Shown here: positions 3,163 through 21,296 of the stretch, piece after piece
Position numbering within the stretch: the first letter of the stretch is position 1
How the letters are laid out: each line of letters begins with the position of its first letter
DNA from: Pseudomonadota bacterium
Lineage (GTDB): Bacteria; Pseudomonadota; Alphaproteobacteria; Paracaedibacterales; CAIOTO01
Reading direction: 5' to 3'
NCBI GenBank assembly: GCA_040387495.1
Contig: JAZKDQ010000014.1
Location: 9,752 to 73,751, forward strand
Length of the DNA stretch: 64,000 nucleotides
The notes under the pieces: model-generated
Seen by the model: the letters and a program-made list of their open reading frames with translations, nothing else
Told to the model about the DNA's origin: nothing
Databases searched by the model: none
Position numbers and translations under genes: made by a program

Positions 3163-3181
3163 AGGGGGAGGAAACTTAAGA

Positions 3182-3472: not shown

Positions 3473-3536
3473 AGTTCCTCCTAATGATTAAGTTTGTTTG
3501 CCCCAGATAATGTGCATAATCTGTTTAATTAGATGA

Positions 3537-3563
3537 TTAGCACTCTCTGTTAATGAGTGCTAA
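3537..3563. promoter_or_regulatory. CIRCE element (HrcA operator)
   Basis: Exact TTAGCACTC-N9-GAGTGCTAA upstream of groES. Confidence 0.97.
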
Positions 3564-3590
3564 TTTAATACGCCAAAGACGTTCTGTCAA
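3562..3590 (-). promoter_or_regulatory. sigma70-type promoter of groESL
   Basis: TTGACA-17 nt-TAAATT on the minus strand, abutting CIRCE. Confidence 0.7.
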
Positions 3591-3682
3591 GTAGGAAGAA
3601 AATGGGAAGTACAAAAAAATACCACAAGAAAAAAGAATCTTGTGGCACATAAGTTCATGCAAAGCAATTAATGTCGATTAGG

Positions 3683-4528
3683 TTATGCAGCCCCTTTGCT
3701 GATTAAAAATGCAACCATTTGATCTTGGCGTGCCTTATCTGTATGTAGAAACATACCAGACGTCGCGGCCATTAGTGGCGTGCGATTATCCTTACCTTTA
3801 GCATTAACATCAAGCTTTAATTCATCAATCAAATATTCTGCGATGTTGATGTGTCCGTGATAACTTGCGGCGTGTAGCAATGTGTCTTCGCCAACTTTTG
3901 CATACTGAGAAACAACTGCCATAACACCTTGTTTGACAAGATATTTTACAAGATCAAGATTTCCGCCAGCACATGCTCTATGCAATGATGTTGGCATTGA
4001 CTCCTTTGCAAAATAGTTGAGGCGAATATCTTTCTCTTCGTGCAGCATTTTAACAAGTACCAAGTTGCCTGCATAGGACGCTTCATGAATGGAATTCTCA
4101 TGCACTTCTGCACCTGCATGTATCAAAAGTTGAGCAACCTCAACATTCCCCTTACCGCATACAATGTTAATTGGTGTAATGCCATTTTGATCACGAAGAT
4201 TTTTTTCAGCACCGAGAGCAACTAAATAACTAATAACCTCAATAGGGGCATTATGCTCACAAGCAATATGTAGAACATTCCTTTTTTGTTTATCCAAAAG
4301 ATTCACCGTTTTAGAAGTAAGCCCTAATGATTGCACAGATTTTAATGTACTCCAATTTTTATGCTCTTGGAGTTTGCTGTAAAAACCAGCATCAAATTGG
4401 TTCACATCATGTTGATCAAAAGTAGGCACATCTGCATAGCATGCAATAGCTGCATTGAGAGCAATCACAACCGCCAATACGTATTTTTTAAAAGTATTCA
4501 TATGATGATTCCTTTTTAGCTTATACAT
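3683..4528 (-). CDS. Ankyrin-repeat protein with signal peptide
   Basis: About 6 ANK repeats (NVLHIACE, GITPINIVC, TSLHRAC, DTLLHAAS, RTPLMAA); hydrophobic N-terminus ending ACYA. Confidence 0.9.
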   Translation of the reverse strand: MYKLKRNHHMNTFKKYVLAVVIALNAAIACYADVPTFDQHDVNQFDAGFYSKLQEHKNWSTLKSVQSLGLTSKTVNLLDKQKRNVLHIACEHNAPIEVISYLVALGAEKNLRDQNGITPINIVCGKGNVEVAQLLIHAGAEVHENSIHEASYAGNLVLVKMLHEEKDIRLNYFAKESMPTSLHRACAGGNLDLVKYLVKQGVMAVVSQYAKVGEDTLLHAASYHGHINIAEYLIDELKLDVNAKGKDNRTPLMAATSGMFLHTDKARQDQMVAFLISKGAA

Positions 4529-4643
4529 TTAATTTCTAAAACCAATATTAAAATAGGAACGAAATAAGCCTTTGTCAATAGTTGTTGAATAAAAATATAT
4601 TTATAATTTACATAAAAAACAATATTCAATAAAAATGATAAGC

Positions 4644-5270
4644 TCACCCCTCCATCGATTCCCACGAATCAAGGGGGATGTATGATTTTTCCGACTCTGA
4701 ATACGTTACAATCTGCCCGGTTTTAATATCAAAAAACCACCTGTGAATGAACATATCGCCTTCATCCATTTTTTTCTTGATCCACGGGAATGTCATGCAA
4801 TTGCTATGTGAATTATGCAGCGCTTGCTTAGCATATTCATCTGCATTTTTAGGCTTGCACGTGTCTGTTTTAATTAAGGATACCCAATTGGTAATAAAGT
4901 CATTCTGATCAAGAATGTCACTATTAATCAATGCTTGAATTCCGCCACACTGGCTGTGCCCAAGTAAAATCAGGTGTTTAATATTTAAAAACGTGACGGC
5001 AAATTCAAGTGCGGCACTGGTACCGTGGTGCGCCTCGTCCTTTTCATACGGTGGTACAATATTCGCTACATTGCGCACAACGAATAAGTCACCGGGGTCG
5101 CATTGTAGGATTAACGCCGGATCAACGCGCGAGTCACAACAGGCCACCACCATAATCTTTGGCTTTTGTCCATGCTGCGAAAGATAATGCATGATCGACT
5201 GATCACCCAGCGCATATTTTTTACGAAAGGCGTGATAACCTTTAAGTATTTTTTTTAAATGCTTTTCCAT
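4644..5270 (-). CDS. can: Beta-class carbonic anhydrase
   Basis: CCDSRV, GDLFVVRNVAN, GHSQCGG zinc ligands. Confidence 0.95.
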   Translation of the reverse strand: MEKHLKKILKGYHAFRKKYALGDQSIMHYLSQHGQKPKIMVVACCDSRVDPALILQCDPGDLFVVRNVANIVPPYEKDEAHHGTSAALEFAVTFLNIKHLILLGHSQCGGIQALINSDILDQNDFITNWVSLIKTDTCKPKNADEYAKQALHNSHSNCMTFPWIKKKMDEGDMFIHRWFFDIKTGQIVTYSESEKSYIPLDSWESMEG

Positions 5271-5536
5271 GATCTCTCAATTGTTAAAGTGATGTTCGGA
5301 CTACGTTATAATATAACCGAATGAGCATTAATGCCAGTGTTGGTTTAATGATGCTTCTTTGGCAAAACTCACTTTTCACTTTCTTTTATATGCAAACAAT
5401 AACATGGCTTAAAAAAATTGTGTGCAGCAGATACACTTACTGGAATTGAACTCCACCACAACTCTAGCAGAGCAATTATATTTCAAAGATAATAAAAAAG
5501 TAAACTATTTATAAATTTTATAGAACTAGATAACAC

Positions 5537-7294
5537 TTGATATCTATAATTAAAACTGATAAATCTAAATTAGATAATTTAAATACAATAATATTCATGT
5601 ATAAATATATAAAAAATAATTTTACGTTAATTTTAGCAATTGCATGCCTTTTCTCTGCTCCAGTTTTGGGTGCGGTAAAGCGTCTACGTGAGTTTAATGC
5701 GATTGATGAAGAGGCTCCTTTATGTAAAGCAAGTCGTATAGAGGCAGATTCGACAGAAGTCCCTGTAATTGTTGAACCACAAAATGACAGCTCCACATTA
5801 GTGCAAACTACACCATCTTTGGACCAAATACTTCATGCAACGGGGGTGAAAATTCGCAAAATGGATGTAGATAAATATTCAAAATGGTTTAGAAATGTCG
5901 AAAAAGAAGTAGAAGCCAGAAAGGAAGGCAAAAGTGCCATAAAGAACTTTGAGAAAATTAACGATGTACAATTTGCAGGTATTGTAAGTTTATTCCGAAA
6001 AGAACAAGAAGCCAGAATCCGAAAAGAACAAGAAGCCAGAAATGGCAAGATATTTGTAAACTTACCAGATGATGTGCTTGAACACGTGTATTTCTTTTTA
6101 GATACGAATCATAAGGAACTCGAATTTTTTAGAACGCTTAAAAATAACCACCCAGCAAGCTTACTTCTTAGTAATTCTGTAAAGTCTTATTATAAACACC
6201 GAAAAAAATTAGAATTATCTGATTTGGATTTAGTGGCAAATCCAAAATACTTTACAAATTTTGATTATTTTTACTTCAAGTTGCATTCACACATTGTGGA
6301 TATAAAAATATCGGATTGTAATAATGTAAGTGAATTTTTGAAAAAAATTCATCTGTTTAAAAAACTTGAACGTCTGGAAATATCCGGATATTGTGACTTC
6401 AATAACATCCCGGACCAGGAAATTGAAATTTCACTGGGGGATAAGTCTCTGGATAATTTGAGAAATTTAGAAAACTTGACATCTTTAAACCTCGAAGTGC
6501 GCATTGTAGATTCTGAGGAAGAGCTTAGTAACGATCCCGATTTTTTGTATGGTTTACCCAAAATAAAAGAATTAGTTATTAAATATTTTAGTTCTAGGGG
6601 ACGGTTATATAACAAACCTGGCAGTATGATTATTGACAAAATATCGAAAAATAAAACTGTAAAAAAACTGCACCTTAAGCATACCTCCATGTCTTTTTCC
6701 TGTTCGTATAATATAAGTTCTCTTATAAAATTATCTGCAAACATACAGCTTGAAGATCTTTACATCCCGCCAACACTTTTTTGTGCTGATTTTCCCTCTT
6801 TTAATAAAGGGGCCGGCAAAAAACTTATGGAAAGTATTTTTCCAGATAAGCATTTTAAGAATGTAGAAGATTTTATTAGTGCCCTATTCTCAAGATTAAC
6901 AAACCTTCGCTCTCTTACAGTTGCAGATTATACCGATGATGATTGGATGGATTCTGTTAATTGCATGAAAGAATATGTTACAAATTTTCTTAAAGATAAT
7001 CTTGTTATAGAAAAGCTTCATCTGCCTAGCCTTTATGTTAATAGATACGGATTGTTGAACATTGTAACATGTAAAAATCTTAAGTATTTTTATTTTCCCT
7101 ATCATCATCTGATTTGTGGACATGATGTAACACCCTCTGAAATCACGTCAATACTTATAAATGGAAAGCTTGAAAAAGATATAAAGTTAACAATTCAGAC
7201 ATCTCAACATAAAGATGATGATTTCGACGTTGATTTACTGAAAACACATTTTCCCAATTTTGAGATAGAGAGAGAATGTGAGATGCCTCACTGA
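5537..7294 (+). CDS. Secreted F-box-like/LRR protein (start probably MYKYIK, about 5597)
   Basis: Signal peptide, NLPDDVLEHVYFFLD F-box-like motif, LxxLxL repeats; 24-bp tandem duplication at 5994-6041. Confidence 0.7.
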   Translation: MISIIKTDKSKLDNLNTIIFMYKYIKNNFTLILAIACLFSAPVLGAVKRLREFNAIDEEAPLCKASRIEADSTEVPVIVEPQNDSSTLVQTTPSLDQILHATGVKIRKMDVDKYSKWFRNVEKEVEARKEGKSAIKNFEKINDVQFAGIVSLFRKEQEARIRKEQEARNGKIFVNLPDDVLEHVYFFLDTNHKELEFFRTLKNNHPASLLLSNSVKSYYKHRKKLELSDLDLVANPKYFTNFDYFYFKLHSHIVDIKISDCNNVSEFLKKIHLFKKLERLEISGYCDFNNIPDQEIEISLGDKSLDNLRNLENLTSLNLEVRIVDSEEELSNDPDFLYGLPKIKELVIKYFSSRGRLYNKPGSMIIDKISKNKTVKKLHLKHTSMSFSCSYNISSLIKLSANIQLEDLYIPPTLFCADFPSFNKGAGKKLMESIFPDKHFKNVEDFISALFSRLTNLRSLTVADYTDDDWMDSVNCMKEYVTNFLKDNLVIEKLHLPSLYVNRYGLLNIVTCKNLKYFYFPYHHLICGHDVTPSEITSILINGKLEKDIKLTIQTSQHKDDDFDVDLLKTHFPNFEIERECEMPH

Positions 7295-7479
7295 GAGTTA
7301 ATTCTAAGGCTGCCTTAGCTATCAACCAATTTTTATCCTCATTCTAAAAGAATAGGGTAGTATCAGAAATAAATCTTCTCATTCACGAGTTTGATAATGA
7401 GCATTCAGATTTTAAGATTAATCCACACCATATTATATTAGGAATAAAAACAATAATTAGTGATTAAAAGGTAGATGAA

Positions 7480-7620
7480 ATGGAAATATTAAAAATTGTT
7501 GGCATTGCTGTATTGGCTATATTTGTTTTCTTAAAAGGAATGAAATTCTTTCTTTATGCTCTCCCCATAATAATAATTGCGACATACCTTTTCTTGAAAT
7601 ACTATTTAAACGTATTTTAA
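7480..7620 (+). CDS. 46-aa small membrane protein
   Basis: Below the ORF-track cutoff: MEILKIVGIAVLAIFVFLKGMKFFLYALPIIIIATYLFLKYYLNVF; two hydrophobic stretches; AAGG upstream. Confidence 0.45.
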   Translation: MEILKIVGIAVLAIFVFLKGMKFFLYALPIIIIATYLFLKYYLNVF

Positions 7621-7827
7621 ATTAGATAAAACTAATATTTGTAAGTTATAAATATTATTAGCGGTTTATTCTTATATTTTTCCTGGTCAAATTTGTATAG
7701 CCATAATTAATACCTGCCCAAAGAAAATGCAACAAGGGGAAGCGTAAGGAATCGCTTCATTCAACTTGATATACGCTATACATTCATTCATAAAAAACTA
7801 TCAAGAAAAAGAAAAATAAGAGCAATT

Positions 7828-8523
7828 GTGATGATCTTTCCTTTAATTTGTGGATTAATTTTTTTTGTAATAACCAGCATCGTTTTTTTCGTGTGTTGGT
7901 GTTTTCCTGATAAGGGAGAAATTTGCGCGGCCTTAATTCAAGGCCTATTTATATTAGCCACGGGTATTCTTGCCCTGATTGCAGGTCACTTTGCATATCA
8001 AACTGCGATGCGGCAAACACGGTTACGTGAACAAAATGAAGAAAAAAGACGTATCGCCTATCGATTTATGATCAAAGAAGTTATTTCAAATTTTATTAAT
8101 AAAATCACGCCGCAGATAGAAAATAAAGGGTCAACAACGGATGGTTCGGGAGATGGAGCAGGAACAGATGGGAGATACGGGAGATACACACCTGAAATAC
8201 TGTTTCCTATTGTTAGAATTCCAGAGCCGCTCACCATAAAAAATTGGGAAAACCTGGCGATGCTGGAAGAAAACGAACTTTCATCGCTTATTCATACGTT
8301 ATCGCTTATTGAAAAAAATAATCTCTTTGCCGCTTTTAGTAAGCTTGAATTTCAAGCAGAAAGTTTAAAACAATCACCCGAAGCATTAGCACTTGAAGAA
8401 GCTGCAGAGTCTGAAATTATTCACGGCATGAACAGAAAAGAGTTTTATCTTAACGCAAACACGATTGTAAGCACACTTAAAGACCTCCATGCAAGTTTAC
8501 GTGAGTCCCCTGTTGTTTCGTGA
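7828..8523 (+). CDS. Hypothetical protein with two N-terminal TM helices
   Basis: 231-aa ORF with hydrophobic N-terminal 60 aa. Confidence 0.65.
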   Translation: MMIFPLICGLIFFVITSIVFFVCWCFPDKGEICAALIQGLFILATGILALIAGHFAYQTAMRQTRLREQNEEKRRIAYRFMIKEVISNFINKITPQIENKGSTTDGSGDGAGTDGRYGRYTPEILFPIVRIPEPLTIKNWENLAMLEENELSSLIHTLSLIEKNNLFAAFSKLEFQAESLKQSPEALALEEAAESEIIHGMNRKEFYLNANTIVSTLKDLHASLRESPVVS

Positions 8524-8728
8524 TATATATAGCTCAGCACGATAGATCCCCGGATCACACCCACTATTGTTTGAGCGTTGCAAAGTTGCAAATCTGCATG
8601 TCATTGTGCTCGACATGTAGACTTTATGATTTTTCTATCAACATACCGTTTTTCCAAAAATATACTTGTAATTCAAAAAAACAATGATTATATAGTGTAT
8701 ATAGATTTAATAATGGTATTTAATAAGA

Positions 8729-10301
8729 ATGAATAAAATGAATTTAATTGGAAAAAAACTAGCTCTACTGATGTTGCTCAGCACATCGTATGTGTCTGCT
8801 ATGGCGCCCAATGCAAATAATGAGCCAGATTCACTTTTGCTTAGATTGCCAACTGATGTAACGGCTGTCTTTTGTAAAGACTGGTTGACACTTGAGGAAG
8901 AAGCTAAAGTTGATTCAGCACTTACGAATCGTAAAGAGCGTAAGTTTCTTGAAGATGCACAAAAGTCGCTTGCTGCTCGCGATATAATAATACTGGACAA
9001 TAAAAATGTTACGGATGATGATTTAAAATCAATTCTGAGTAAATTTCAAAATACTAAAGATTTATCCCTAAAAAACTGCACCAACCTTACGGGTGCTGCT
9101 CTCATCGACATCGCAACACATTGTGCGCACTTAAAGCATTTAAATCTAGAGGGCTGGCACCAATTTAAGCGCCCGGACATTATCACATTGGTGAAGCTTT
9201 GCCCTGAATTAGAAACGATAAATCTTTCATGGAACACAAAGATTGACAAATTCTGGGCAAGCATTAAAAATCCGGGGTTCGTAGAAATTGCAAATAATTG
9301 CCCGAATTTAATAACGGCGGATTTTTGTAGAACTTACATACATGATGAAGGAATCAATGCCTTTCTAAAAAAATGCCTAAAATTAAAAACGCTGAAGGTG
9401 GGTGGACGCGTCTCTATTACAAATGCCGCCTTTAATGGTTTGGAAATAAATGCAATGTTAACACATCTACATATTACAGGTCCTGCTGACATAACAGAGG
9501 AAGGATTTATTGTGATTGCTGTAAGTTTCCCAAATCTAATAATGGCGAATTTTCCTGGTTGCAGGGGACTTACAGATAAAGGTGTTGAGATGCTGGCAAA
9601 GAAGTGTGGGAATTTAGTAAATCTAAATTTTTATGCTTGCACACTTACCGATTTATCAGCTGAGAGCTTAACCATGTATCTCCCTAAACTAGAAAAAATA
9701 AACCTTGGCTACACCGGTATCACAGACATAGCTGTTGATTATTTAGCATCAAGCTACAATCAATCACTAATAGAGGTTGATATTTTTTCTAATTATGGAA
9801 TTACAGATGAAGCTAATAAATCATTAGTAACGCACTGCAAAAACATCACAAAATTAAATGTTAGTGATTGTAAAAATCTTACTGAGGTATCTTTTAAAGC
9901 AATAGCCGAAAATCTCCACAAGCTGATATGGTTGAACTTTTGTGAACTCAGGCGTTTTCAAGAAAGTTCTATTACACTTATGGATATAATGACATTCACA
10001 CAAGATTACGAAGAACTAAAAGAGCTACAGAAGGACGATTCTACTGAAACTACTAATGTAGTTATTAATGAAGTTATTAAGAGATTAAGTAAAAAATTGC
10101 CGCAAGCTAACTAGAATACATATTAGTTTATGCCAACGTCTTAGTAACGCATCTCTAGAAGCATTAACAGAAAATTGCCCCCAGTTAACGTTGTTGGATG
10201 TTTGGGATGTTTCTAAATGTCCTGAATCCGATATTGCTCTAAAAAAAATTAAGCGGATATTTGGGGATAAATTAACACTCGATATACCCTACTATGACTG
10301 A
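8729..10301 (+). CDS. Secreted F-box/cysteine-containing LRR (FBXL-like) protein, frameshifted near the C-terminus
   Basis: ORF 8729-10114 has a signal peptide, LLRLPTDV F-box-like motif and 26-aa LRR_CC units. The LRRs continue in the +1 frame from 10095 to TGA at 10301. Confidence 0.85.
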
Positions 10302-10334
10302 TTAATTTTCTATCTCTTAGACATAAATCTCTCG

Positions 10335-10374
10335 TTTATATAATCACCGGGTCGGTTCCCGGTGATTATATAAA
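10335..10374. terminator. 17-bp perfect inverted repeat, probable terminator
   Basis: tttatataatcaccggg-tcggtt-cccggtgattatataaa. Confidence 0.75.
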
Positions 10375-10396
10375 AAATAAATGAATGACATGTACA

Positions 10397-10498
10397 GCTA
10401 TGCTATCCTTGCCTTACAACCAAGGATTCTCATGTGCCTCATCACTCTAAAAATGTTGTTTTTAGTTGGGTGGTTGTCGCGCACGTACAGCTTTATCG
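10397..10498 (+). pseudogene. Degenerate copy (A) of the ABC permease promoter and 5' end
   Basis: gctatgctatccttgccttacaaccaaggatt...aaaatgttgttt...gttggg..gttgtcgcgcacgtacagcttt matches 12805-12980, with an internal deletion. Confidence 0.8.
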
Positions 10499-10682
10499 TG
10501 AAAACGATATTCTCTACCAAATTTTCTTTCTAAGAAAATCATTTTTGTTGAATACTTAGTTGATGTTCACGTCTCTCTATCTATTTTTTAAATAATATAT
10601 AAAATATTTAAATTTAAAATACAACTACGTTAATTGTGTTAAATTAATCAATTATTCATCTATTTTATGTTAACTTAAATAT

Positions 10683-11072
10683 ATGAAATTATACTTATTT
10701 GGTTTGAAAGCTATGATTTACTACAAATACATTAAACATATTTCATATTTTATTTTGTTAGTATTAATTGTTCTCTTCTTAAGAATGCAATTTTCAAAAA
10801 ATTTTAATGTAGGTATACACAACGAAACTGAAGTGAAATTTTTAACAGATCCTGCAATGACATCGCAAAATAGAGCAAATATTGCACTAATTATTTTGCA
10901 TCGAAATTCACTGGCTCTTTATCATCGAGATGCAGCTACAGCTGGGATAAAGTTCTTAAATGACAAAAATGTAGCTAATGGAATAAAAAATGCTATTGCT
11001 AGTATTGTTATGCATCGCGTTGAATTAAAGGAACATCACCCGGCTGCGCAGCTGTATATAAATAAGCCATAA
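10683..11072 (+). CDS. Hypothetical membrane-anchored protein with two approximately 38-aa helical repeats
   Basis: VKFLTD...IALIILHR..L..YH.DA / IKFLND...IASIVMHR..L..HH.AA. Confidence 0.55.
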   Translation: MKLYLFGLKAMIYYKYIKHISYFILLVLIVLFLRMQFSKNFNVGIHNETEVKFLTDPAMTSQNRANIALIILHRNSLALYHRDAATAGIKFLNDKNVANGIKNAIASIVMHRVELKEHHPAAQLYINKP

Positions 11073-11145
11073 CGCTTCACGTTTATTTTAATCGTGATTG
11101 AATCACAGTCAACAATCAATAAAACGTCCCACTTTTTTCCTTGCG

Positions 11146-11334
11146 GCTATGCTATCCTTGCCTTATAACCCAAGGATTCATATGTACCGCATCGCGCTTA
11201 AAATGTTGTTTGGTGACAAAGGCAAATACATCAGTATGATTGTGGGTATTTCCTTTTCAACGCTGATCATGACGCAGCAACCATCGATTTTGGTTGGGCT
11301 GTTGTCGCGCACATACAGTTTCATTCGCGATATT
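11146..11334 (+). pseudogene. Truncated copy (B) of the ABC permease 5' end
   Basis: About 185 nt, roughly 89% identical (my manual count) to 12805-12989; homology stops after RTYSFIRD. Confidence 0.92.
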
Positions 11335-11351
11335 TTTACTGCCACATATTT

Positions 11352-12605
11352 TTACTGCCACAACGCATGTAATGGTATTGCCCAAAAACCATCACCAAAA
11401 GGGACGCAGTAATTTCCGGAATACAGCACAATACCTGTAAACGGCATATCCAAAGCCATACGTTCCTTAAACCAACGTAAGTGCTTGAAATCATCATTTG
11501 ATACAACTGATCCCGGTTTTACTTCGATGCCAACCAAGGCACCTTGTTCATTTTCGACAATAAAATCAATTTCACGATTTTCGCGATCTCTGTAATGCGA
11601 GAGAATATATCGTTCTGCTTGGCAATCCAACAAAGCCGCTAATTGTGTAAAAGCAAATGTCTCTAACAACATTCCATTGCGCGCACCATCAAATTGAACG
11701 TGTTCAAACGTCCATCCCAGAAGTGCACCTATCATCCCTGTATCAGTCATGAAAAGTTTATCATGTTTACCAACCTTGTCATATGCTGTCTTGGTCCATG
11801 GCGGAACACGCTCCACTAAATACAGTGCTTCAAGTGCATTAATATATGCAGTAAGTGTTGGCCTTGTAAGTGTTAAGCTAGCACCAATACGTGTAAAATC
11901 AATAAATCGTGAAGACCAGCCAGCCATTATTGTGATCAGCTGACGCATTTCATCAATACGTTTTATATTCATTATGTCTTTCAAATCACGATGAATCATG
12001 GCATTGATATAATCTTCAAACCAATCTCGACGGTCGCGTTCTTTTTCAAATTTTAATACTTCAGGATATCCCCCTGTTAGTGCATATGAAATGTATAGAT
12101 CTTTGAAACTAAGTCTAGGCAAATAGTTAAATGTGATGTCTTGCGAAAAAGTATTGTTAAATGCACGTTGTAAAAACGCTGGCGTTAATCCTTCAATTTC
12201 ACCAATCGCCAAAGGTCTCAAACGGATATGCCGCACACGGCCAGCAAGAGACTCTTTAGCTGTTGGAATCGATTCAATATTCGCAGAGCCTGTTAACAAA
12301 AATCGACCTGGTTTAGTATTATTATCAACATCCATCTTAATTGCTTGTAACAGCAAGGGCGCTCTTTGGATTTCATCAATAATCATTAAATTATCCTCAT
12401 GTTTTACAAAACCATGAGGGTCTGTTTGTGCCGCTGACAGCAGAAGGATGTCATCTAATGTTCGGTAGAGGTGTGGGGGAGAGGCAATATCTTTTGCTAA
12501 TGTCGTTTTGCCGCATTGTCTTGATCCGGAAAGCAACAAAACACGTCGTACTTTCAACGATTCATTTATTTTGTTTACTTGCCAACGCTTATAATGTGAT
12601 GTCAT
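11352..12605 (-). CDS. AAA+ ATPase, AAA_14 + DUF4143 family
   Basis: GSRQCGKTT Walker A, IIDEIQR, FLLTGS, C-terminal EIDF...GIEVK nuclease-like motif. Confidence 0.9.
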   Translation of the reverse strand: MTSHYKRWQVNKINESLKVRRVLLLSGSRQCGKTTLAKDIASPPHLYRTLDDILLLSAAQTDPHGFVKHEDNLMIIDEIQRAPLLLQAIKMDVDNNTKPGRFLLTGSANIESIPTAKESLAGRVRHIRLRPLAIGEIEGLTPAFLQRAFNNTFSQDITFNYLPRLSFKDLYISYALTGGYPEVLKFEKERDRRDWFEDYINAMIHRDLKDIMNIKRIDEMRQLITIMAGWSSRFIDFTRIGASLTLTRPTLTAYINALEALYLVERVPPWTKTAYDKVGKHDKLFMTDTGMIGALLGWTFEHVQFDGARNGMLLETFAFTQLAALLDCQAERYILSHYRDRENREIDFIVENEQGALVGIEVKPGSVVSNDDFKHLRWFKERMALDMPFTGIVLYSGNYCVPFGDGFWAIPLHALWQ

Positions 12606-12837
12606 TTTCAGCTAAGAATTAGATTTTCTATTAAAGGAAGTATATCAAAAAAAGACGTTTTGTAAAATAGATAGTCGTCATTTTATAAAATACAATGACG
12701 CCATTCTGTAAAATTGAAGATGCTGTCGAAATAATAAATAATTCTGCAGTGCTTCTTTTGTGAATACCAAGAAGTAAAAAACTACTGACCTAGTTTTCGT
12801 AACCATGCTATCCTTGGCGCGTAACCCAAGGAATCCC

Positions 12838-13992
12838 ATGTACCGCATCGCGCTTAAAATGTTGTTTGGCGACAAAGGTAAATACGCCAGTATGATTGTG
12901 GGTATTTCCTTTTCAACGCTGATTATGACGCAGCAACCATCAATTTTGGTTGGGTTGTTGTCGCGCACGTACAGCTTTGTCCGTGATGTATCGTTGCCTG
13001 ACATCTGGGTAATGGATAATGGCGTTCAATTCGTAGAAGAAAACAAACCCATACGTGATACTGAACTTGGCCGCGTTCGTGGCATTGATGGCATAGCGTG
13101 GGCAGTGCCATTATACAAAGGACTTATGCGGGCAAAATTACCCGACGGGTCGACAAAAACACTGGATATGACCGGCATTGATGATGCGACACTCATTGCA
13201 GCACCGGCAAATATTCTTCAAGGAAGTCTCTCTGACTTTAGACGCCCTGATGCTGTATTCATTAATAAAGAAGCTGCGGATACCAAGCTTCGCGTGAAAA
13301 TTTCTGAAACCCAAACGCGCCCACTTGCTGTTGGTGATGTGATTGAAATCAACGATAAACGCGCGCAGGTCGTAGGGCTTATCAAAGCAACGCGCAATTT
13401 TGTTTTGCAACCACAAGCTTACACAACATATTCAAGGGCTGTGTCTTATTCAGCGCCTGGCAGACGGCATCTTACGTATATCCTTGTTAAAGTCAAAAAA
13501 GGGGAAGACCCCAAGCAAATCTGCACGCGAATTATACAAAAAACGGGTTTACGCGCACAAACAGCTGATGAATTTGCAGACGCAAATCTTGATTATTGGA
13601 TGCGAAGCACTGGTATATTAATTAATTTTGGCATCTCTGTGTTGCTAGGATTCATTGTCGGAACAGCTGTTGTGGGGCAGACATTCTTTAACTTTGTTCA
13701 GGAAAACATCAAACATTACGCCGTGCTTAAAGCCATGGGGCTGCGAAATCGCGTTTTAGCGAAAATGGTTATGTTACAAGCATGTGTTGTTGGCATCATC
13801 GGATACGGTATTGGTGTTGGGCTTGCTAGCCTGTTTGCCCTGAAATTCCAGGATTCTGTGCTGGCCGTTCGCATGCCGCCTATCCTTTTGCTTTTCTCTG
13901 GTTTAGGTGTTTTGTTAATTATTTTGACAGCAGCAATTATCAGTATTAGACGCGTAATTCGGGTTGACCCGGCGCTTGTGTTTAGGGGCTAA
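12838..13992 (+). CDS. ABC exporter permease (MacB/FtsX/DevC-like)
   Basis: TM1, periplasmic domain and 3 C-terminal TMs, YAVLKAMG, RVDPALVFRG. The ATG at 12838 follows AAGGA (track start 12805). Confidence 0.92.
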   Translation: MYRIALKMLFGDKGKYASMIVGISFSTLIMTQQPSILVGLLSRTYSFVRDVSLPDIWVMDNGVQFVEENKPIRDTELGRVRGIDGIAWAVPLYKGLMRAKLPDGSTKTLDMTGIDDATLIAAPANILQGSLSDFRRPDAVFINKEAADTKLRVKISETQTRPLAVGDVIEINDKRAQVVGLIKATRNFVLQPQAYTTYSRAVSYSAPGRRHLTYILVKVKKGEDPKQICTRIIQKTGLRAQTADEFADANLDYWMRSTGILINFGISVLLGFIVGTAVVGQTFFNFVQENIKHYAVLKAMGLRNRVLAKMVMLQACVVGIIGYGIGVGLASLFALKFQDSVLAVRMPPILLLFSGLGVLLIILTAAIISIRRVIRVDPALVFRG

Positions 13993-13994
13993 CT

Positions 13995-14708
13995 ATGAAA
14001 ACTACAAAAGCGCTAAAAACCAGCAACGCAACGTTTGCTGTATCATGCAAAGGAATTAGTAAAGCTTTTATCACGAAAGATGTCGAAGTCACTGCCCTTC
14101 ATAAGGTTGATTTGGATATTAAAACGGGTGAATTCATGATGCTGGTCGGGCCATCGGGGTGCGGTAAAACGACGTTGATTTCAATTATTGCCGGTATTTT
14201 AAAGCCCAGTACAGGTACATGCATTGTTGAGGGCGCGGATCTAAATGCCTTAACAGACACTGAACTGCTTGATTTCAGGGCTAAAAAGATTGGATTTATT
14301 TTTCAATCGTTTAACCTTATTCCGACACTCAGCTTGCTTGAAAACATTGCGATTCCGCTGATCATAAATGGCGCCTTGCGGGATGAAGCCACGACACGCG
14401 CCGAAGTAATGCTGGCTAAAATGGAGCTTGGTGCAAAGGCGGATCGATCGCCAACACAATTATCGGGCGGTGAACAACAACGCATTGCCATCGCACGCGC
14501 CCTTGTGCATCAGCCATCCTTGCTGATTTGTGACGAACCCACCAGTGCCCTGGATCATGCAACGGGCACAACGATTTTAGAGCTGATGAAAGACATCAGT
14601 CGCGAGATGAAAACTACTTTTGTCATCGTCACGCATGATGCCCGTATTTTCAAATATGCCGATCGCATCGCCCATATGAATGATGGCGTTGTGACGCATG
14701 TTGAGTGA
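13995..14708 (+). CDS. ABC transporter ATP-binding protein (LolD/DevA-like)
   Basis: GPSGCGKTT, LSGGEQQR, DEPT, VTHD. Confidence 0.96.
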   Translation: MKTTKALKTSNATFAVSCKGISKAFITKDVEVTALHKVDLDIKTGEFMMLVGPSGCGKTTLISIIAGILKPSTGTCIVEGADLNALTDTELLDFRAKKIGFIFQSFNLIPTLSLLENIAIPLIINGALRDEATTRAEVMLAKMELGAKADRSPTQLSGGEQQRIAIARALVHQPSLLICDEPTSALDHATGTTILELMKDISREMKTTFVIVTHDARIFKYADRIAHMNDGVVTHVE

Positions 14709-14746
14709 AATAGCCAATCATCTTCTTCAAATTACCCACCCATTTT

Positions 14747-17700
14747 TCAGGAAAATTTACCACGCACTGGTAATATTTCACCAGTGTCCAATAAATGTTG
14801 TACGTAGGTTCTTACTTGTCTAAACTCGCATTCTACACCTTTTGAAGTGGCAATATCTGTTAATGGCATGCCTTTAATTCTAAGATTTTTAATGTTGGAC
14901 TTTTGTTTATCTGAAAGTGGGGGTAAAGGAGCATTAATTCGACGCTCAATGTTTCCTTCTTGGATATTTTTAGAACAAAAACTACGAATTTGTCCTAGGC
15001 TGAATTTTCTGTCCTTATACTTTGTTTCTAATACCTGAAGAATTTGTGCTGATAACATGCCTTTCTCTCGACATTCTATAATCGTTTCTTTGTGCGTCTC
15101 CTCGAGAGGTCCTGATGTGGATGAAGGAGCCTGTTTTGAAAGAATTTGACCAGATTCAATTAATTCAGTTACATACGATCTGACTTGTGTAGAACTGCAT
15201 TCTACACCTTTTGAATTGGCAATATCTGTATTTGACAGGCCATTAATTCTAAGTTCTTTAATTTTGTCTTTTTGTTTATCTGAAAGTGGAGTAAAAGCTG
15301 CAACTTGACGCTCAACAGTTCCCTCTTGGATGCTTTTAGAGCAAAACACGTTAACTTGACCAATGCTGAATTTTCTGTCCTTAAACTTTGTTTCTAATTC
15401 TTGAAGAATTTGTGCGTATGACATGTCTTTCTTTCGGCATTCTACAATCGTTTTTTCGTGAGCTTTCTCGAGAGGTCCTGATGTAGATGAGGGAGCATTT
15501 TTAGGAAGAATTTCACCAAGTTTAATTAATTTGCTTACATACGCTTTAATTAAGTTGAGGGTGTACCCTGTGCTTTCTTGAATGTCACCTTTTGTCATTT
15601 TAGGATTTTCTAGTTTAAGCCTTTTAATTTCTGCAAATTTTTCTGGGAATTCAGGAACATAGGGTGCATTATTTGCATTATTCTTTGTGTCTGAACTCTT
15701 GCCCTTTCGAGCAACAATAGGTTTAGCACCTTTTCGTTGTTGGGGGGCAGCAGAATTAGCTCGTGCCTTTTTTACAGGTTTTTTAGCACTTAATTCATCA
15801 TCTGAATCTTCCTCTAAACTATCGTTAGTTATTGAGCGATCAACTAATTTCTTATCTGCCTCTTCATCAGATAGTCCCTCCCATAAAGAACCAACTGACG
15901 ACTCATTATGCGATGAGCTGCTGCCAGAATCATTTGAATCTTCGCTATCGGATGACTGTGAATCATCGCTGTTCTCTTCTGCTATATCTGAATCATCACT
16001 GTCTTTTTCTGCATAGCTAACAGGTTTTGCCGCGGCTTTTCTATGCACAAAGCTATCATTCGAGGAGGCTGGTTTACCCCTTTTCAAATCACGCGTTGTT
16101 TTAGACATTGTTGAGCTAGAGCTCGCCGGCACTGCATTATCATTTTCCTCATCATCAACAGCTGCTATCTTTCTTTTTTTCTGAGATGAGGCATTTGTAG
16201 CTGCAGAGAGTGTGTCAGATCTGCCGAATGGCATCATGTCAAGGGCAGAAGTAGAATGTGAGGCTGGCTTGCGTATAGTTGACGTTTGACTGCCGGTTTT
16301 TGCATGTGGAGTCTTTGTTTGCTTAACCTGTGTATCAGAGGCGTTGTGTGTCGTTGATTTCACAATTTCAGGTGTTTTGGTTGTTGTTAATTTTGATGCT
16401 GTTGATTTAGATGCAACGACATTACGTGACAGCAGAGCAGTCTCATCATTATCTGAATCTGAGTCTGAGTCTGAGTCTGAGTCTGAGTCTGAGTCTGAGT
16501 CTACGCCACGCTCGAGTATTATTTCTCGCTTTCCGATTGGCTTTTGTCGTTCTGTCGGAATTGTTTGTTTTGCTACAGTTGAGATGCTTTTCACCGATGC
16601 TTTGTCCGCATCTTTTAATTTTATGTTCTTATCTTTTACTTTGGTTAATTCTGTTTGCTTAGAGTTATTTTTCTTAACTGCTGAGCCGCCTTTACCAACT
16701 GCTAGTTGGAGTCTTGATTTTGGGGCCTTAGGATTATTTACTATTGCCCTATTATTCACACCCTCTTCCTCAACAGAAGAATTTATATTCTTTCCACCTA
16801 TGGTTAGTGTGCTCGCGGATGTTTGTTTTGAAGCAGATGAACTGCCCATAAATGGTACAGAACTATTATTTGCTGCGTTACCGCTATGTGCTGCTTTCTT
16901 CTTTTTTGTTATGCTTGATACTGCAATTGATGTTGAAGTCTCGTCTTCATCATCTGAATCAATCACAGCCTTCCTTTTGAAAATTTTATTTCCATTTGTT
17001 GTGTTAGTTTTTTCTTGCTCTACTGGGTCTGGGTTGTGTGTGGATAAAGTGCTGTTATCATGTACTGAATCATTCTCTGGGTAGCCGTAGTCATCAGCCC
17101 CCCCTCCTTGATCACCATAATCATCATATGTTAGCGGTGAGAGAGTAGCCTGAACTGCAGGGCTGGCTACAGCTGATGCTGCTTCCTGAGAGCTACTTGC
17201 TCCGCTTGAGGCAATTTCTTTGCTATGCGTTTTTATTTCTTCGAGTGCCCTCCAGAAAACAGCATTTATTTTGCTTAGTGAGTTTGTATTCTTTGGTTCA
17301 TTTATAATTTTGGCTGACTCTAAATCAATGTCTAACAGTAGCTCAAAGGAGTCTTTATTTATTTGTTCAATAACGCTATCTTTTTTTGATTCAAATTCTA
17401 GACCTACATTTTTTTCGAGTATTATTTTTTTTAATACATATTGAAGGACTGAGTTTATTTTTTCAGAAGGGGCCTTCTCGTTTTCTATTATTTCATAGAA
17501 ATCAGAAGTAAAATTATTGAATATTTCACTTGTTGTTAAGCTGCATTCTGTTATTTCTTTTTGTGCCTCTGTAAAAATAGTGTTTAGCTTGTTAAGCAAA
17601 TTCTCGGTGCTTTGCTCGTTTATTAACTTGACCACTTTTAACTTAAGACTTATCAATGATTTTGAAAATTTTTTCTCAAGAATTTCATTTTTGAGTAATT

Positions 17701-20026
17701 CAAAGTCTTGCCCCACATTTGTTTCGTGCATTATTTTTTTTAATACGTCTTGAAGGACTGAGATTATCTTCTCAAAAGAGGTGTTTGATTTCTTTATTAT
17801 TTCATTGAATGCTGAAATAAAACTCACTAATACTTGATTTGTATTCTTTTTCATTTCCTCAAGTGTTTTTGTTGTGGATGTGGCTAAAACTTGTGTTTCC
17901 AACGCAGGTTCTTCTTCAGGCACTATTGTTACTTGTGTCACTGGAGCCGCTAAACTATGTGCAACAGAAACATTGATATTATCTGCATGACCAGCCGTGC
18001 TTGTTTCAACTGCAGTAACCTGCTCTTTTTCCTGAGTTTCCTCACGGGTCAAGGACGGCTCATCATTCGTCACTATTTGTGCGCTAGGTGCAAGGTCTGG
18101 CTGTGGTGCAATGCCTGGCTCGAATGATAGAGAAGAAGAATCTACGTTTACGGGAATCGCCGCTTCACCAGGTTCGCTTTGCACAGCAACTGACCTGGCA
18201 TTTTGATCCCCATGCGCTTTATCAAGTATCCGTGGCATACTTTCCTTCACATATTTTTCGAAAATTTCATATAAATCAGCAATATTAGTTGTGAATTTTA
18301 ATCCTAATTGTTCTATAATTTCTGGCGTTTCTAAAACAGCACTTATTGTTTCAACGGCAACCTCTGGCTCTTTCTGGGGTTCATCATGTGCTGGGTCTGC
18401 TGATAAAAGTAAAGAAGAAGTGTTTGCTTGAACTTGGGGCGCCTCAACTAAGTGAAGAGGTTCTTGTTCATCACTGATTGTTTCCAAATCTTTGTTTATA
18501 GGTAATGGTGCATCGCCTGTTAATTCTGCTTCTTCGCCTGTTATTGTTGCAAGTTCTTTTAAACTACTTGAACTACTTGAGCTAATTGAACTACTTGAAC
18601 TACTTGAGCTATGTTCAGAAGGCAATAAAGCACCATTCAAAGCTGCAACTATATTTATTTTTTTCTGTAATGGTTTTGTCGCAATTCCATTAGATGCTTT
18701 ACTGTTATTTTTGGTATTACCTGTATAGTTAACGGGATTTTTCGTACATGATCTAGGCGCACATATAATATCACCCAGTCTTATATTTTCATTTTCTGAA
18801 TTATTATTTTTATCAATTTCTTTATTCTTTTCTTTTGCCTTTTTTTGTTTCGAAGCAGTTGGAACATTTTGATTTATTAATAATGAAGGATTTGAGGAGG
18901 CAACATTGTCTAAAGTTAAGAATGGTAATTTTTCCCCCGCACGCTTTGGATTGACTATAATGGCTGAAGGGAAAGAAGCAGGCGCTTTTTGAGCAACTGA
19001 TGGTAAACAATCGTTTATATTGTGAGGCAGATCAGTAAGTAAGATCTCATTCTCTGGAGAAAGTATATCACTACAAAGATCGGACAGCACTGCTTGAAAG
19101 TCCTCATCACTCTGAACATTGCCAGAATGTATGCTTGCGGCAGATGAACTCGGTACATTATTACTTTGATATGCTGTGTAATTGGAGTCAGAATATACGC
19201 TTGCGGCGGAAGAACTCGACGCATTATTGTTTTGATCTGCCGGGTAATTGGAGCCAGAATATACATTTTCGGAGGAAGAACTCAGCACATTAGTATTTGG
19301 GTATCCTGAATGATTAGGAACTATATCATCGTTATCAAATACTGAACCAACGTCTACGTCGGGGCTAAATTCTGAGCCTAAGCCTAAGCCTAAGCCTGAG
19401 TCAGCGGCTAAAAAGCTTAAGTTTAAATCAGACACGAACGACAATTTGCTTGACGAAGCATGTGAGACAGCTACATCGGGTGCCTGCTGAACACAAGCTT
19501 GCATAGCAGATGATGCGCTTATAACCTTTTTGGGTCCTTTTCTATAATGAAGAGGATTTGGGTCTTCTTTTCGAAGTTTCTGAAGAATTCCTGAAATCTT
19601 ATTTACGGTCATATGAAGTGTATCTGCAATTTTATATTTTGTGGGTTTTTCTTCGCTGTTGTATAAAGCTATGATCTGTTTGTTTACTTCTGTTCTTTCG
19701 GTTGAGTCTCGTTGAATAAGACTAGAGGATGTTTTACGAGAATGAGAGCGTGATGAATAACATGAATATACAGAATCACTATCACTCATATCATCGCCAC
19801 TGCTATTACCAGATGCATAAGAATGCCCAATGATTAAACTTAAATAACTAAACACCACCAAGGAAGATACTAATTTTTTAAAACATGTTGTTACTAACTG
19901 TAGCGCAGTCGATAGGGATGACTCACCATCCTCATTCATTATAACACCTGAAGATTTCATGCCTGCTTGTACCATTGACGCACCATTTTTTATTATTTGC
20001 ACTCTTTGCATAGGATCACAATTCAT
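14747..20026 (-). CDS. Giant low-complexity protein with N-terminal HTH-like and five C-terminal HTH-like repeats
   Basis: 1759-aa ORF; signal-like segment ending HSYA; Ser/Asp/Lys-rich middle; A-B-A-B-A C-terminal repeats with about 121-aa period. Confidence 0.8.
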   Translation of the reverse strand: MNCDPMQRVQIIKNGASMVQAGMKSSGVIMNEDGESSLSTALQLVTTCFKKLVSSLVVFSYLSLIIGHSYASGNSSGDDMSDSDSVYSCYSSRSHSRKTSSSLIQRDSTERTEVNKQIIALYNSEEKPTKYKIADTLHMTVNKISGILQKLRKEDPNPLHYRKGPKKVISASSAMQACVQQAPDVAVSHASSSKLSFVSDLNLSFLAADSGLGLGLGSEFSPDVDVGSVFDNDDIVPNHSGYPNTNVLSSSSENVYSGSNYPADQNNNASSSSAASVYSDSNYTAYQSNNVPSSSAASIHSGNVQSDEDFQAVLSDLCSDILSPENEILLTDLPHNINDCLPSVAQKAPASFPSAIIVNPKRAGEKLPFLTLDNVASSNPSLLINQNVPTASKQKKAKEKNKEIDKNNNSENENIRLGDIICAPRSCTKNPVNYTGNTKNNSKASNGIATKPLQKKINIVAALNGALLPSEHSSSSSSSSISSSSSSSLKELATITGEEAELTGDAPLPINKDLETISDEQEPLHLVEAPQVQANTSSLLLSADPAHDEPQKEPEVAVETISAVLETPEIIEQLGLKFTTNIADLYEIFEKYVKESMPRILDKAHGDQNARSVAVQSEPGEAAIPVNVDSSSLSFEPGIAPQPDLAPSAQIVTNDEPSLTREETQEKEQVTAVETSTAGHADNINVSVAHSLAAPVTQVTIVPEEEPALETQVLATSTTKTLEEMKKNTNQVLVSFISAFNEIIKKSNTSFEKIISVLQDVLKKIMHETNVGQDFELLKNEILEKKFSKSLISLKLKVVKLINEQSTENLLNKLNTIFTEAQKEITECSLTTSEIFNNFTSDFYEIIENEKAPSEKINSVLQYVLKKIILEKNVGLEFESKKDSVIEQINKDSFELLLDIDLESAKIINEPKNTNSLSKINAVFWRALEEIKTHSKEIASSGASSSQEAASAVASPAVQATLSPLTYDDYGDQGGGADDYGYPENDSVHDNSTLSTHNPDPVEQEKTNTTNGNKIFKRKAVIDSDDEDETSTSIAVSSITKKKKAAHSGNAANNSSVPFMGSSSASKQTSASTLTIGGKNINSSVEEEGVNNRAIVNNPKAPKSRLQLAVGKGGSAVKKNNSKQTELTKVKDKNIKLKDADKASVKSISTVAKQTIPTERQKPIGKREIILERGVDSDSDSDSDSDSDSDSDNDETALLSRNVVASKSTASKLTTTKTPEIVKSTTHNASDTQVKQTKTPHAKTGSQTSTIRKPASHSTSALDMMPFGRSDTLSAATNASSQKKRKIAAVDDEENDNAVPASSSSTMSKTTRDLKRGKPASSNDSFVHRKAAAKPVSYAEKDSDDSDIAEENSDDSQSSDSEDSNDSGSSSSHNESSVGSLWEGLSDEEADKKLVDRSITNDSLEEDSDDELSAKKPVKKARANSAAPQQRKGAKPIVARKGKSSDTKNNANNAPYVPEFPEKFAEIKRLKLENPKMTKGDIQESTGYTLNLIKAYVSKLIKLGEILPKNAPSSTSGPLEKAHEKTIVECRKKDMSYAQILQELETKFKDRKFSIGQVNVFCSKSIQEGTVERQVAAFTPLSDKQKDKIKELRINGLSNTDIANSKGVECSSTQVRSYVTELIESGQILSKQAPSSTSGPLEETHKETIIECREKGMLSAQILQVLETKYKDRKFSLGQIRSFCSKNIQEGNIERRINAPLPPLSDKQKSNIKNLRIKGMPLTDIATSKGVECEFRQVRTYVQHLLDTGEILPVRGKFS
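16458..16502. repeat. (TCTGAG)7 in-frame microsatellite encoding poly-(DS)
   Basis: Directly visible tandem hexamer. Confidence 0.95.
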
Positions 20027-20270: not shown

Positions 20271-21296
20271 ATGCACAACAGGAATAAAACAATGAAATAT
20301 CTCAAGCATCTTGAGCGACACATAAAAACAATAGTAAGCATTGCTAAAACAGCCTTGTTTCTTGCCCGAAGAAATATTCTGGCAACGTGTGGAGTCTTAG
20401 GGCTTTTTATGGCAATTATTGTTAGTTTTTCAAAAGGAAAACTGCCGGAAATCCCCGCAAATCAAATGAGTCTACCAGCGTCATCACCCTTTAAACATGC
20501 TATTTCTGGTATCGGTTTTGTCGAAGCAAATTCAGGGAACATCAGTGTAGGATCATTCACATCCGGCATTGTACAAAAAGTATATGTCCAAGAAGGTGAT
20601 GTGGTTGAAGTAAATGCGCCCTTGTTTGAGCTGGACACCCGGTCCGCACGCTTACAAGTTGCCATTGATGAACACGAAATTAAGGCGTTTGAGCAATGCG
20701 TGGAGGCTGCAAAAGCAACCTTTGGGTATGCAGAAGATTTGTATAACCGGGACAAGAAACTAAAAGATGGTGTCAAAAGCCGTAGTGACCTCAAAAAGGT
20801 CGAGTTTGACTTTCAAAAGACTTTGGCTGATCTTAATACCCAAAAAGTAAAACTAGAGCAAGCACGCACCAAACATGCACTCTCACGTGTTGCACTTGAT
20901 AAGCTTATCGTGAAAGCACCTGTGGCTGGCCTTATTTTAAAAACGCACGTGAATGTGGGTGAATATATTAAAGAAAACACGCAAACCCCAATCATTACCA
21001 TGGGCAACCACAAACCGCTGCACCTGCGTGTTCAAATTGATGAAAATGACGTATGGCGCTATGAACATAGAGCAAAGGCAGCTGGATACCTTCGCAGTAA
21101 TAGTGCCACCGTGTATCCATTGACGTGTGTACGGTTTGAACCATACGCAATGCCAAAAAATCAACTAAGCGGCGATAGTAAAGAACTAGTCGATACACGC
21201 ATCATTGAAATTGTGTACAAGATTGAAGATGCAAAGGACGAGGTGATCATTGGGCAGCAAATGGATGTGTTTATTGAAACATCGAAGATGGGGTGA
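20271..21296 (+). CDS. HlyD-family membrane fusion (periplasmic adaptor) protein
   Basis: N-terminal TM, GIVQKVYVQEGDVVE lipoyl half, coiled coil, VKAPVAGLI, IGQQMDVFI. Confidence 0.92.
   Translation: MHNRNKTMKYLKHLERHIKTIVSIAKTALFLARRNILATCGVLGLFMAIIVSFSKGKLPEIPANQMSLPASSPFKHAISGIGFVEANSGNISVGSFTSGIVQKVYVQEGDVVEVNAPLFELDTRSARLQVAIDEHEIKAFEQCVEAAKATFGYAEDLYNRDKKLKDGVKSRSDLKKVEFDFQKTLADLNTQKVKLEQARTKHALSRVALDKLIVKAPVAGLILKTHVNVGEYIKENTQTPIITMGNHKPLHLRVQIDENDVWRYEHRAKAAGYLRSNSATVYPLTCVRFEPYAMPKNQLSGDSKELVDTRIIEIVYKIEDAKDEVIIGQQMDVFIETSKMG

Follow-up and report, generated by a model that had tools for sequence, protein, structure and literature searches.

Within a window of 64,000 nucleotides (nt), by which the whole stretch of DNA analysed is meant (G000:C14:9752-73751), the 5' end of a gene for a DevC/MacB-type ATP-binding cassette (ABC) permease occurs three times, as copies A, B and C; a different gene stands behind each of the first two, and only C runs on into the intact permease gene. 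The explanation favoured here, held tentatively and with somewhat less than even confidence, is that DNA of relatives diverged by about 10% was inserted without an integrase, homology in the gene end providing the anchor on one side and the opposite side being joined illegitimately. Recombination with diverged relatives is favoured because the copies appear to be recent working alleles of different lineages, no integrase lies nearby, and many unrelated gene ends carry similar traces, here termed scars.

G000, the genome under study, is an assembly of 1.66 Mb in 20 contigs with 39% GC content, rated 99.9% complete. Related proteins in alphaproteobacterial metagenome-assembled genomes and in Caedimonas/Caedibacter share 66-68% protein identity, and on account of this kinship the lineage is Holosporales-like and probably host-associated. 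G001, G002 and G003 belong to the same genus, G008 to a sister genus and G057 to another family; coordinates are those of the window unless a contig with a G prefix is given.

Three copies of the permease 5' end

The repeated segment is about 190 nt long and extends from 35 nt upstream of the likely start codon (ATG at 12838) through approximately codon 51. The repeat finder aligned B (11149-11331) with C (12805-12987) at 89% identity over 183 nt and returned two further three-copy families that include A, while BLAST against the whole genome gave 90.8% over 173 nt for B and C (E 1e-64), 86.4% over 66 nt for A and B (E 1e-14) and 90.7% over 43 nt for A and C (E 3e-9). The two methods agree on the three copies described in a first-pass annotation of this DNA, with A decayed and carrying a deletion (78 nt by alignment), B about 89% identical and C intact. 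In the BLAST alignments A has a mosaic pattern, resembling B upstream and C downstream. A fourth copy is absent from the 1.66-Mb genome by BLAST, and with a profile of the segment nothing but B, C and the two pieces of A reached E<=0.001, the following match standing at E 0.068. The promoter, which had also been counted as part of the repeated 5' end, was not found in it: only about 35 nt of upstream sequence, comprising the ribosome-binding site (RBS) and 5' untranslated region (UTR), is repeated, and a promoter scan (15 sites, 11.2 expected) placed none at 12803-12837, for which reason a promoter within the repeat was dropped. The sole plus-strand promoter-like sites ahead of the permease gene lie within 12606-12802, upstream of the repeat. 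A hairpin at the RBS as a feature of the outer boundary was likewise dropped, as its stem is not kept in G003 when judged by eye.

Between B and C there are 15 base differences over codons 1-51, four of them non-synonymous and 11 synonymous; the earlier count was about 10 of 14, and with regard to codon position the differences are strongly non-random. Coding differences from the orthologues in G001 and G003 number 13-16 for B and 20 for C; the shares at codon position 3, 0.67-0.81, match those between working orthologues. B aligns with the G001 orthologue at 89% over 205 nt, as far as 11351. Copy A differs from C by eight substitutions that are spread 2/3/3 over the codon positions (alignment count), plus indels, so that it appears to be decaying. 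A decaying A, a B that resembles a working allele and an intact C fit the age-ordered stack that had been proposed.

The junctions are real and the copies exist, as judged on metagenome contigs and not on raw reads. For X1, probably the sample from which G000 came, contigs built by an independent assembler match 9500-11211, 11238-12867 and 12894-14200 without a difference, and their only breaks fall in two stretches, of 32 and 36 nt (alignment count), where B and C are identical. Contigs of another sample, X2, likewise free of differences, run across both sides of A, across the junction of B with the ATPase gene of the second cargo (B|AAA) and across the junction of that gene with C (AAA|C). 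Runs X3 and X4, from other studies, are of equal size, gave identical results and are probably one data set filed twice; their four 151-nt contigs on the stretch come from a related strain, with pieces of the AAA gene that have 2 and 5 differences per 151 nt and a B/AAA-type junction that lacks the 16-nt duplication listed in Table 1. One of these contigs lies on 12918-12998 with 5 differences over 81 nt, and its remainder fits the 3' end of the AAA gene at 23/30 positions by eye.

Table 1. Features at the permease 5' end (window coordinates)
Feature	Position	Strand	Basis or remark
Inverted repeat whose 30-nt arms are 80% complementary, immediately upstream of copy A, where the leucine-rich repeat (LRR) gene region ends	10322-10387		Repeat finder
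Copy A, decayed permease 5' end in two pieces, with 1-nt indels	10400-10498 (10400-10461, 10461-10498)	+	Repeat finder, alignment, BLAST, profile
Cargo 1, AT-rich DNA (about 25% GC at 10600-10999)	10499-11146	+	
Cargo 1 open reading frame (ORF), 129 amino acids (aa)	10683-11072	+	
Copy B, allele-like 5' end with RBS, a start codon at 11182 and some 51 in-frame codons	11147 to about 11335	+	Repeat finder, BLAST
Exact tandem duplication of 16 nt where B meets cargo 2, including the stop codon of the AAA gene	11330-11361		Sequence read directly
Cargo 2, AAA_14 + DUF4143 ATPase, 417 aa	11352-12605	-	Pfam, PADLOC
Cargo 2 upstream region	12606-12802		Promoter-like site of the AAA gene at 12666-12639 (-); promoter scan
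Copy C, repeated segment joined to the intact gene	12803-12990	+	Repeat finder, BLAST
Intact DevC/MacB-type ABC permease	12838-13992	+	MacB_PCD + FtsX domains; best NCBIfam match devC, below cut-off
ABC ATPase, same operon as the permease	13995-14708	+	Domain search

Scars at other gene ends and in relatives

Self-comparison of G000 returned 152 local direct-repeat pairs, of which 27 were chosen by eye for ORF maps. A scar was called clear when a copy at the end of a long ORF was accompanied by a stranded copy, with at least one unrelated gene between the two; nine loci (10 pairs) are of this kind, which together with the focal locus gives 10 loci in G000, so similar scars do exist genome-wide. 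Approximately nine more of the mapped pairs are ambiguous, being intergenic or involving paralogues, and five others are pieces resembling an IS6 transposase (by eye), a whole-gene duplicate and intragenic repeats. The repeats at scars measure 60-600 nt, and the gene ends targeted, some ten in all, are 5' ends in some cases and 3' ends in others; their copies differ by 4-20%, with many scars clustering at 88-92% identity. Among the cargos are two Sel1-repeat proteins, another AAA-DUF4143 gene, a Gp49-like gene paired with a small ORF, and orphan proteins whose N-termini look like signal peptides by eye. At the C14 95586/96541 scar, repeats identical at 78/78 positions flank a toxin-antitoxin-like cargo; in the C14 triple 95469/96541/99257 identity is 100% for the nearer copy and 96% for the farther one, with inner boundaries 112 nt apart.

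When 11 scar comparisons are pooled, 148 of 207 coding differences fall at codon position 3 (binomial p = 1e-14 against an expectation of 0.45, which is our own estimate for one decaying copy), 150 are synonymous and 57 non-synonymous, and indels are almost nil. The share at position 3 is 0.69-0.84 between a stranded copy and the orthologue in a congener, and 0.77-0.87 between one orthologue and another. Based on this excess, the stranded copies look like working alleles of another lineage and not like decayed local duplicates; it follows that both copies at a scar would have been working alleles of different lineages until shortly before they were brought together. At the two longest 3'-end scars the intact and stranded copies are about 88% identical, which equals the distance between species of the genus.

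Relatives provide the corresponding empty sites. The permease 5' end is single-copy in G001 and G003, and at the two longest 3'-end scars the gene is present once, with no adjoining cargo, in 6/6 congeners. The upstream neighbour of the permease gene is a different one in each of the genus's three genomes, and the sequences A, B, C, G001 and G003 become homologous at one point, to within about 3 nt, with different DNA upstream in all five. G001 has a scar of its own at the 3' end of the ATPase gene, where the last 107 nt are duplicated at 85% identity behind a 415-aa ORF without a Pfam match; 12/16 differences there are at position 3, and the stop codon is kept. A Sel1-repeat cargo is found at the same gene end in G000 and G001, with stranded pieces of 180 and 131 nt, respectively. 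The stranded piece is 92% identical to the intact copy of its own genome in G000 and 83.5% in G001, while identity across the species is 81-84%; the differing lengths and greater likeness within genomes fit junctions that would have formed anew in each lineage.

With regard to direction, the stranded copy is the one closer to congeners at the focal locus, at two other scars and at the ATPase scar of G001, and these four loci point to the attached copy as the possible foreign one. The earlier proposal that the intact end would be the incoming one meets a mixed signal at three further loci (see below). Branch lengths and gene-body trees were not decisive as to which copy is resident and which foreign.

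Under a uniform filter, pair counts were 35 in 1.66 Mb for G000, 3 in 134 kb for G003, 2 in 400 kb for G002, 0 in 399 kb for G008 and 3 in 400 kb for G057; these raw pairs include tandem paralogues and intragenic repeats, and the genome samples are small. From these counts the trait would seem to be enriched in G000 and G003 in these small samples, and not confined to them. One pair in G057 flanks a restriction-modification (RM) unit (G057:C1 approximately 406020-410480) with 101-nt direct repeats of 95% identity, one of which overlaps the 3' end of the neighbouring gene. The unit comprises a cytosine-methyltransferase-like ORF and two further ORFs and is adjoined by a serine-recombinase-like ORF, all names being given by eye.

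Other repeats were recorded alongside the scars. A 108-nt segment is present outside the window at G000:C14:85877-85984 and 90878-90984 with 90% identity, flanking a 1538-aa ORF, and holds two TTATCCACA-type boxes that are DnaA-box-like by eye. A 250-aa gene with a putative TatC-like N-terminus (by eye) is duplicated at 99% identity around ORFs of 93 and 435 aa (G000:C6:84565-85379 and 87447-88261). An element of approximately 45-115 nt recurs in G000 and G001 at 77-91% identity, with sites at L088 1109-1223 (G001:C55), at about 26718-26781 in the window, at G000:C6:33610-33724 and at G000:C9:5922-5965.

Routes by which the stack may have formed

As proposed here, two successive integrase-independent insertions at the 5' end of the DevC-type permease gene would have built the age-ordered stack of A, B and C. 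The incoming DNA of a relative diverged by about 10% would have brought a cargo and, beside it, the gene end in the form that worked in that relative; one side would be formed by homologous recombination within the gene, for which RecA would be needed, and the other by an illegitimate join at about codon 50-55 of the second gene-end copy, each event keeping one intact gene and stranding one 5' fragment. Junctional templated duplications such as the 16-nt one at B|AAA occur at illegitimate joins. The route may be homology-facilitated illegitimate recombination, possibly across sister chromatids, or alternatively break repair that copies a foreign template and is completed by end joining; we infer the one-sided use of homology, the identity of the incoming copy and the way in which the DNA entered. 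The same process could have marked about ten gene ends in G000 and more in congeners. A broader version, in which the genus would gain most of its accessory genes (effector-like repeat and defence genes) integrase-free by a break, copying from a diverged relative and joining, with datable scars at gene ends and preferred break points, is doubtful; the preferred break points are suggested by the nearly coincident inner ends of A and B and by the five contexts that have one outer boundary.

The genome's recombination and uptake genes are in part those which such a process would use. Profile searches found genes for RecA (486 bits), ComEC (203 bits) and DprA (225 bits), whereas neither the HK97 capsid nor VirB4 was found in the genome, and a gene transfer agent (GTA) or conjugation as the route was rejected on these two negative searches. 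In the ORFs scanned between 660 and 20026 there is no integrase or transposase domain, as had been noted for the immediate surroundings. Genome-wide there is one weak match to the tyrosine recombinase family PF00589 (28.4 bits, G000:C15:69442-69981), and the PF00589 search yielded no clear XerC/XerD pair, serine recombinases and transposases not having been searched genome-wide. Of the competence, GTA and recombinase genes that had been suggested as worth looking for, the genome therefore has ComEC, DprA and this one weak match, and lacks a detectable HK97 capsid. A recombinase acting in trans near gtcgcgcac.tacag, as suggested in the first-pass annotation, is not borne out: the candidate motif GTCGCGCACNTACAG has three occurrences in the genome, all in A, B and C, and was rejected as a recombinase site because it is conserved coding sequence in the orthologues. 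Scar boundaries are sharp, and no shared crossover motif was found at 76 of them, where the top 6-mer count is 8 and random windows give a null maximum with a mean of 7.6 and an upper value of 12. The overall interpretation given in that annotation is supported in part, by scars elsewhere, empty states in relatives and codon-position bias, and is not supported with respect to the trans-acting recombinase.

Several observations weigh against the proposed insertion of relatives' DNA. Four of the 11 scar comparisons have weak or no synonymous bias (C13_51985, 3:8; C14_94161, 3:4; C9_24384, 1:3; C1_14456, 18:14), and MutS is present, a protein expected to impede recombination between sequences 10% apart. 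Only about 1-12 nt separate the inner ends of A and B, the exact figure varying with the parsing of the 16-nt duplication; neither this near-coincidence nor the outer boundary common to five contexts is predicted by random illegitimate joins. Direction is mixed at the three further scars, where the stranded copy is the closer one in 1/3, 2/4 and 1/5 comparisons with one tie, and polarising B/C and two other scars by means of outgroups gave ambiguous states at most third positions. A donor genome was not found; homologues of the cargo 2 protein in the order reach at most 57% protein identity, and metagenome contigs gave two loci at 34%.

Two alternatives, which likewise dispense with an integrase, deserve the most attention. 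Campbell-type integration, in which a circle (a plasmid fragment or a looped-out scar) bearing the segment of about 190 nt together with a cargo would have entered by a single crossover, has exactly the topology of insertion-duplication, and it would account for an outer boundary common to A, B and C, for A and B inner ends that nearly coincide as in a discrete module, and for the mosaic structure of A. The X1 assembly graph breaks within the stretches identical between B and C, so the contigs alone are compatible with a 1656-bp circle; however, cargo and flank contigs have similar depths (13.6 compared with 12.6 and 10.6). Elsewhere the module is less uniform, as the inner boundaries of the C14 triple are 112 nt apart and the Sel1 scars have stranded pieces of 180 and 131 nt. 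With no plasmid or conjugation gene in the single search made (VirB4), and the origin of the first circle left unexplained, integration of this type is considered rather unlikely.

Similarly unlikely is a local, long duplication of the target upon insertion of the cargo, the copies being overwritten later by homologous imports or gene conversion. Such an origin would require an extra import into a fragment of 60-600 nt at most scars, would leave the clustering of many scars at 88-92% identity unexplained, and would predict decay between imports, yet indels are few and the position-3 bias is at the level of orthologues. It is nevertheless supported by the 78/78 identical repeats at C14 95586/96541, by the C-like segment joined to the 3' end of the AAA gene in X3/X4, as if B had been converted by C, and by copies within a genome that are more alike than the positional counterparts of G000 and G001. 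Insertions of this class have, moreover, been described already, as far as the portion of PMC2853133 at hand conveys.

The remaining alternatives are far less probable. Remnants of site-specific integrative elements with attachment sites at gene ends, whose integrases were lost or act in trans, are very unlikely: the PF00589 match is weak, single in the genome and on another contig (PF00589 being the recombinase family searched genome-wide), the ten or so gene ends targeted, whose repeats range from 60 to 600 nt, have no motif in common, and the focal cargos are single genes in 0.6-1.5 kb with no phage or transfer genes, even though the outer boundary is shared and the direct repeats have exact stretches of 32-36 nt in common. 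Replacement of a gene end with mostly synonymous differences, the old end being stranded, does take place when e14 and phage 21 insert in icd. It is equally hard to believe that the AAA-DUF4143 (PDC-S01) gene drives its own insertion, as has been proposed for restriction-modification genes, and that the other scars are unrelated. Two of the three AAA-DUF4143 genes in G000 do form single-gene cassettes of about 1.44-1.46 kb between repeats of a neighbouring gene end, and 4/11 orthologue loci in other genomes are at contig ends; however, flanking repeats as a property of the family were rejected, as none of the seven testable orthologues (those with 1.5 kb on both sides) is repeat-flanked, the third G000 copy is unflanked, and most scars carry other cargos (Sel1, orphans, Gp49-like). 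Least probable of all is an assembly or binning artefact joining alleles of two co-occurring species, which a 20-contig assembly, closest runs that are metagenomes, copies differing to a species-level degree and junctions checked on contigs might suggest, as an independent assembler's contigs bridge every junction in two samples with 0 differences, sharp junctions between fragment and cargo are not expected from allele switching, and like scars are found in the separate assemblies of G001 and G003.

Cargos, surroundings and known systems

The inserts at the focal locus measure 0.65 and 1.46 kb and hold one gene each, with AAA_14/DUF4143 as the only Pfam matches. The ORF of cargo 1, which had been called a repeat protein, has two similar stretches of about 20 aa by eye and no family match in Pfam, PADLOC or NCBIfam. 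A search of 61 further genomes of the order with the DNA of cargo 1 yielded no homologue, and only chance matches of 23-42 nt in five of them. The AAA-DUF4143 gene reported behind copy B is present, on the minus strand and converging on B; its protein matches the PADLOC defence candidate PDC-S01 over its full length (E 4e-136), and the gene retains the native C-terminus seen among homologues. In G003, the sequences at C3:52-705 and C39:49-645, at the ends of two contigs, are two halves of an AAA-DUF4143 homologue (57-58% identity), as if the assembly had broken inside the gene. Several orthologues from other genomes are likewise situated no more than 310 nt from where a contig ends.

Upstream of the stack, the DNA at 5400-11000 is AT-rich (25-37% GC, compared with 42-48% in the transporter genes) and carries genes for LRR proteins, and an ankyrin-repeat gene (3683-4528) lies beside the GroEL and carbonic anhydrase genes; the permease 5' end thus borders a zone of eukaryote-like repeat proteins. 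Downstream, a 1759-aa ORF on the minus strand (14747-20026), with internal direct repeats spaced 366-369 nt, separates the ABC ATPase gene from the one at 20271-21296. The counterparts of these two genes in G003 are about 490 bp apart, and nothing like the 1759-aa ORF was found there.

How bacteria that have few mobile elements and are obligate or host-associated gain effector and defence genes is poorly documented, and homology-anchored illegitimate recombination has been shown mostly in the laboratory, with few traces in natural genomes. In the literature searched there is no account of such traces in Holosporales-like or endosymbiont-like bacteria, which is thin evidence of absence. About ten scars in one small genome, each keeping both gene-end alleles around a cargo, form a record of recombination between lineages that puts events in order, and suggest that new genes enter this small, endosymbiont-like genome through recombination with diverged relatives and not by way of integrases. 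Other genomes could be screened for the signature, in which a gene end is repeated directly and locally at 80-96% identity and most differences are synonymous; the finding also extends long target duplication beyond restriction-modification genes.

Among known systems, the replacement of icd ends by e14 and phage 21 is similar in that the insert brings a diverged gene end and the old end is stranded, but it is driven by an integrase at one specific site, whereas here no integrase is nearby and many sites are involved. An island with an integrase and a gene-end attachment site would have a recombinase beside the insert and a common crossover core, and both are lacking here, as judged from the scanned ORFs (660-20026) and the 76 boundaries.

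Insertion with long target duplication, of the classes on record the one most like the present case, is reportedly to be traced to Nobusato and colleagues in 2000. In the part of the later account by Furuta et al. (2010; PMC2853133) that was available, it is a short insert without mobility genes, flanked by direct repeats >30 bp, with a single-copy target in a relative; it is reported mostly in naturally competent species, and the repeats are near-identical in the tables, e.g., 44/46. To the extent of that account, the focal locus shares direct repeats >30 bp (183 nt for B/C and 43-66 nt for A), a single copy at the same site in G001 and G003, inserts of 0.65 and 1.46 kb (<20 kb) without a mobility gene, and a defence-type cargo (PDC-S01). 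It differs in that the copies here are 4-20% diverged, mostly at synonymous sites, as befits different alleles and not a fresh duplication, near-identical repeats being met only at C14 95586/96541 (78/78); cargos here are mostly not restriction-modification genes, and scars are dense, some of them stacked in threes.

Homology-facilitated illegitimate recombination in transformable bacteria is said to have been described by de Vries and Wackernagel and by Prudhomme et al., both in 2002, and the laboratory events reportedly tend to delete recipient DNA rather than duplicate the anchor. On the reading proposed here, the present case would share a one-sided homologous anchor with an illegitimate join, and a dependence on RecA and DNA uptake, for which the genes (RecA, ComEC and DprA) are present here; allele-level divergence would fit a foreign anchor, and the boundaries are sharp, with a 16-nt junctional duplication at B|AAA. 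Duplications driven by transformation through interchromatid integration, a precedent for the mechanism, have been described by Johnston et al. (2013), in the portion of the paper at hand (PMC3784515).

Next in likeness to long target duplication as a parallel are the effector-immunity arrays of the type VI secretion system (T6SS), for which sequential displacement, and likewise displacement of Rhs C-termini, is set out in the consulted part of Kirchberger et al. (2017; PMC5361080). As described there, a conserved part of the gene serves as the homologous anchor, the other end is proposed to be joined illegitimately without an integrase, and older pieces are pushed outward in order of age, as A (decayed), B (allele-like) and C (intact) are here. 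Those arrays, in contrast, occupy the 3' ends of toxin genes and retain immunity genes that selection maintains, whereas here an ABC permease gene and other ordinary genes provide the anchors, at either their 5' or their 3' ends, no cargo is related to its anchor gene and the fragments have no evident function. The present case differs from the known classes in its diverged, allele-like repeats, its anchors in ordinary 5' and 3' gene ends, its cargos that are mostly not restriction-modification genes, and its dense and stacked scars.

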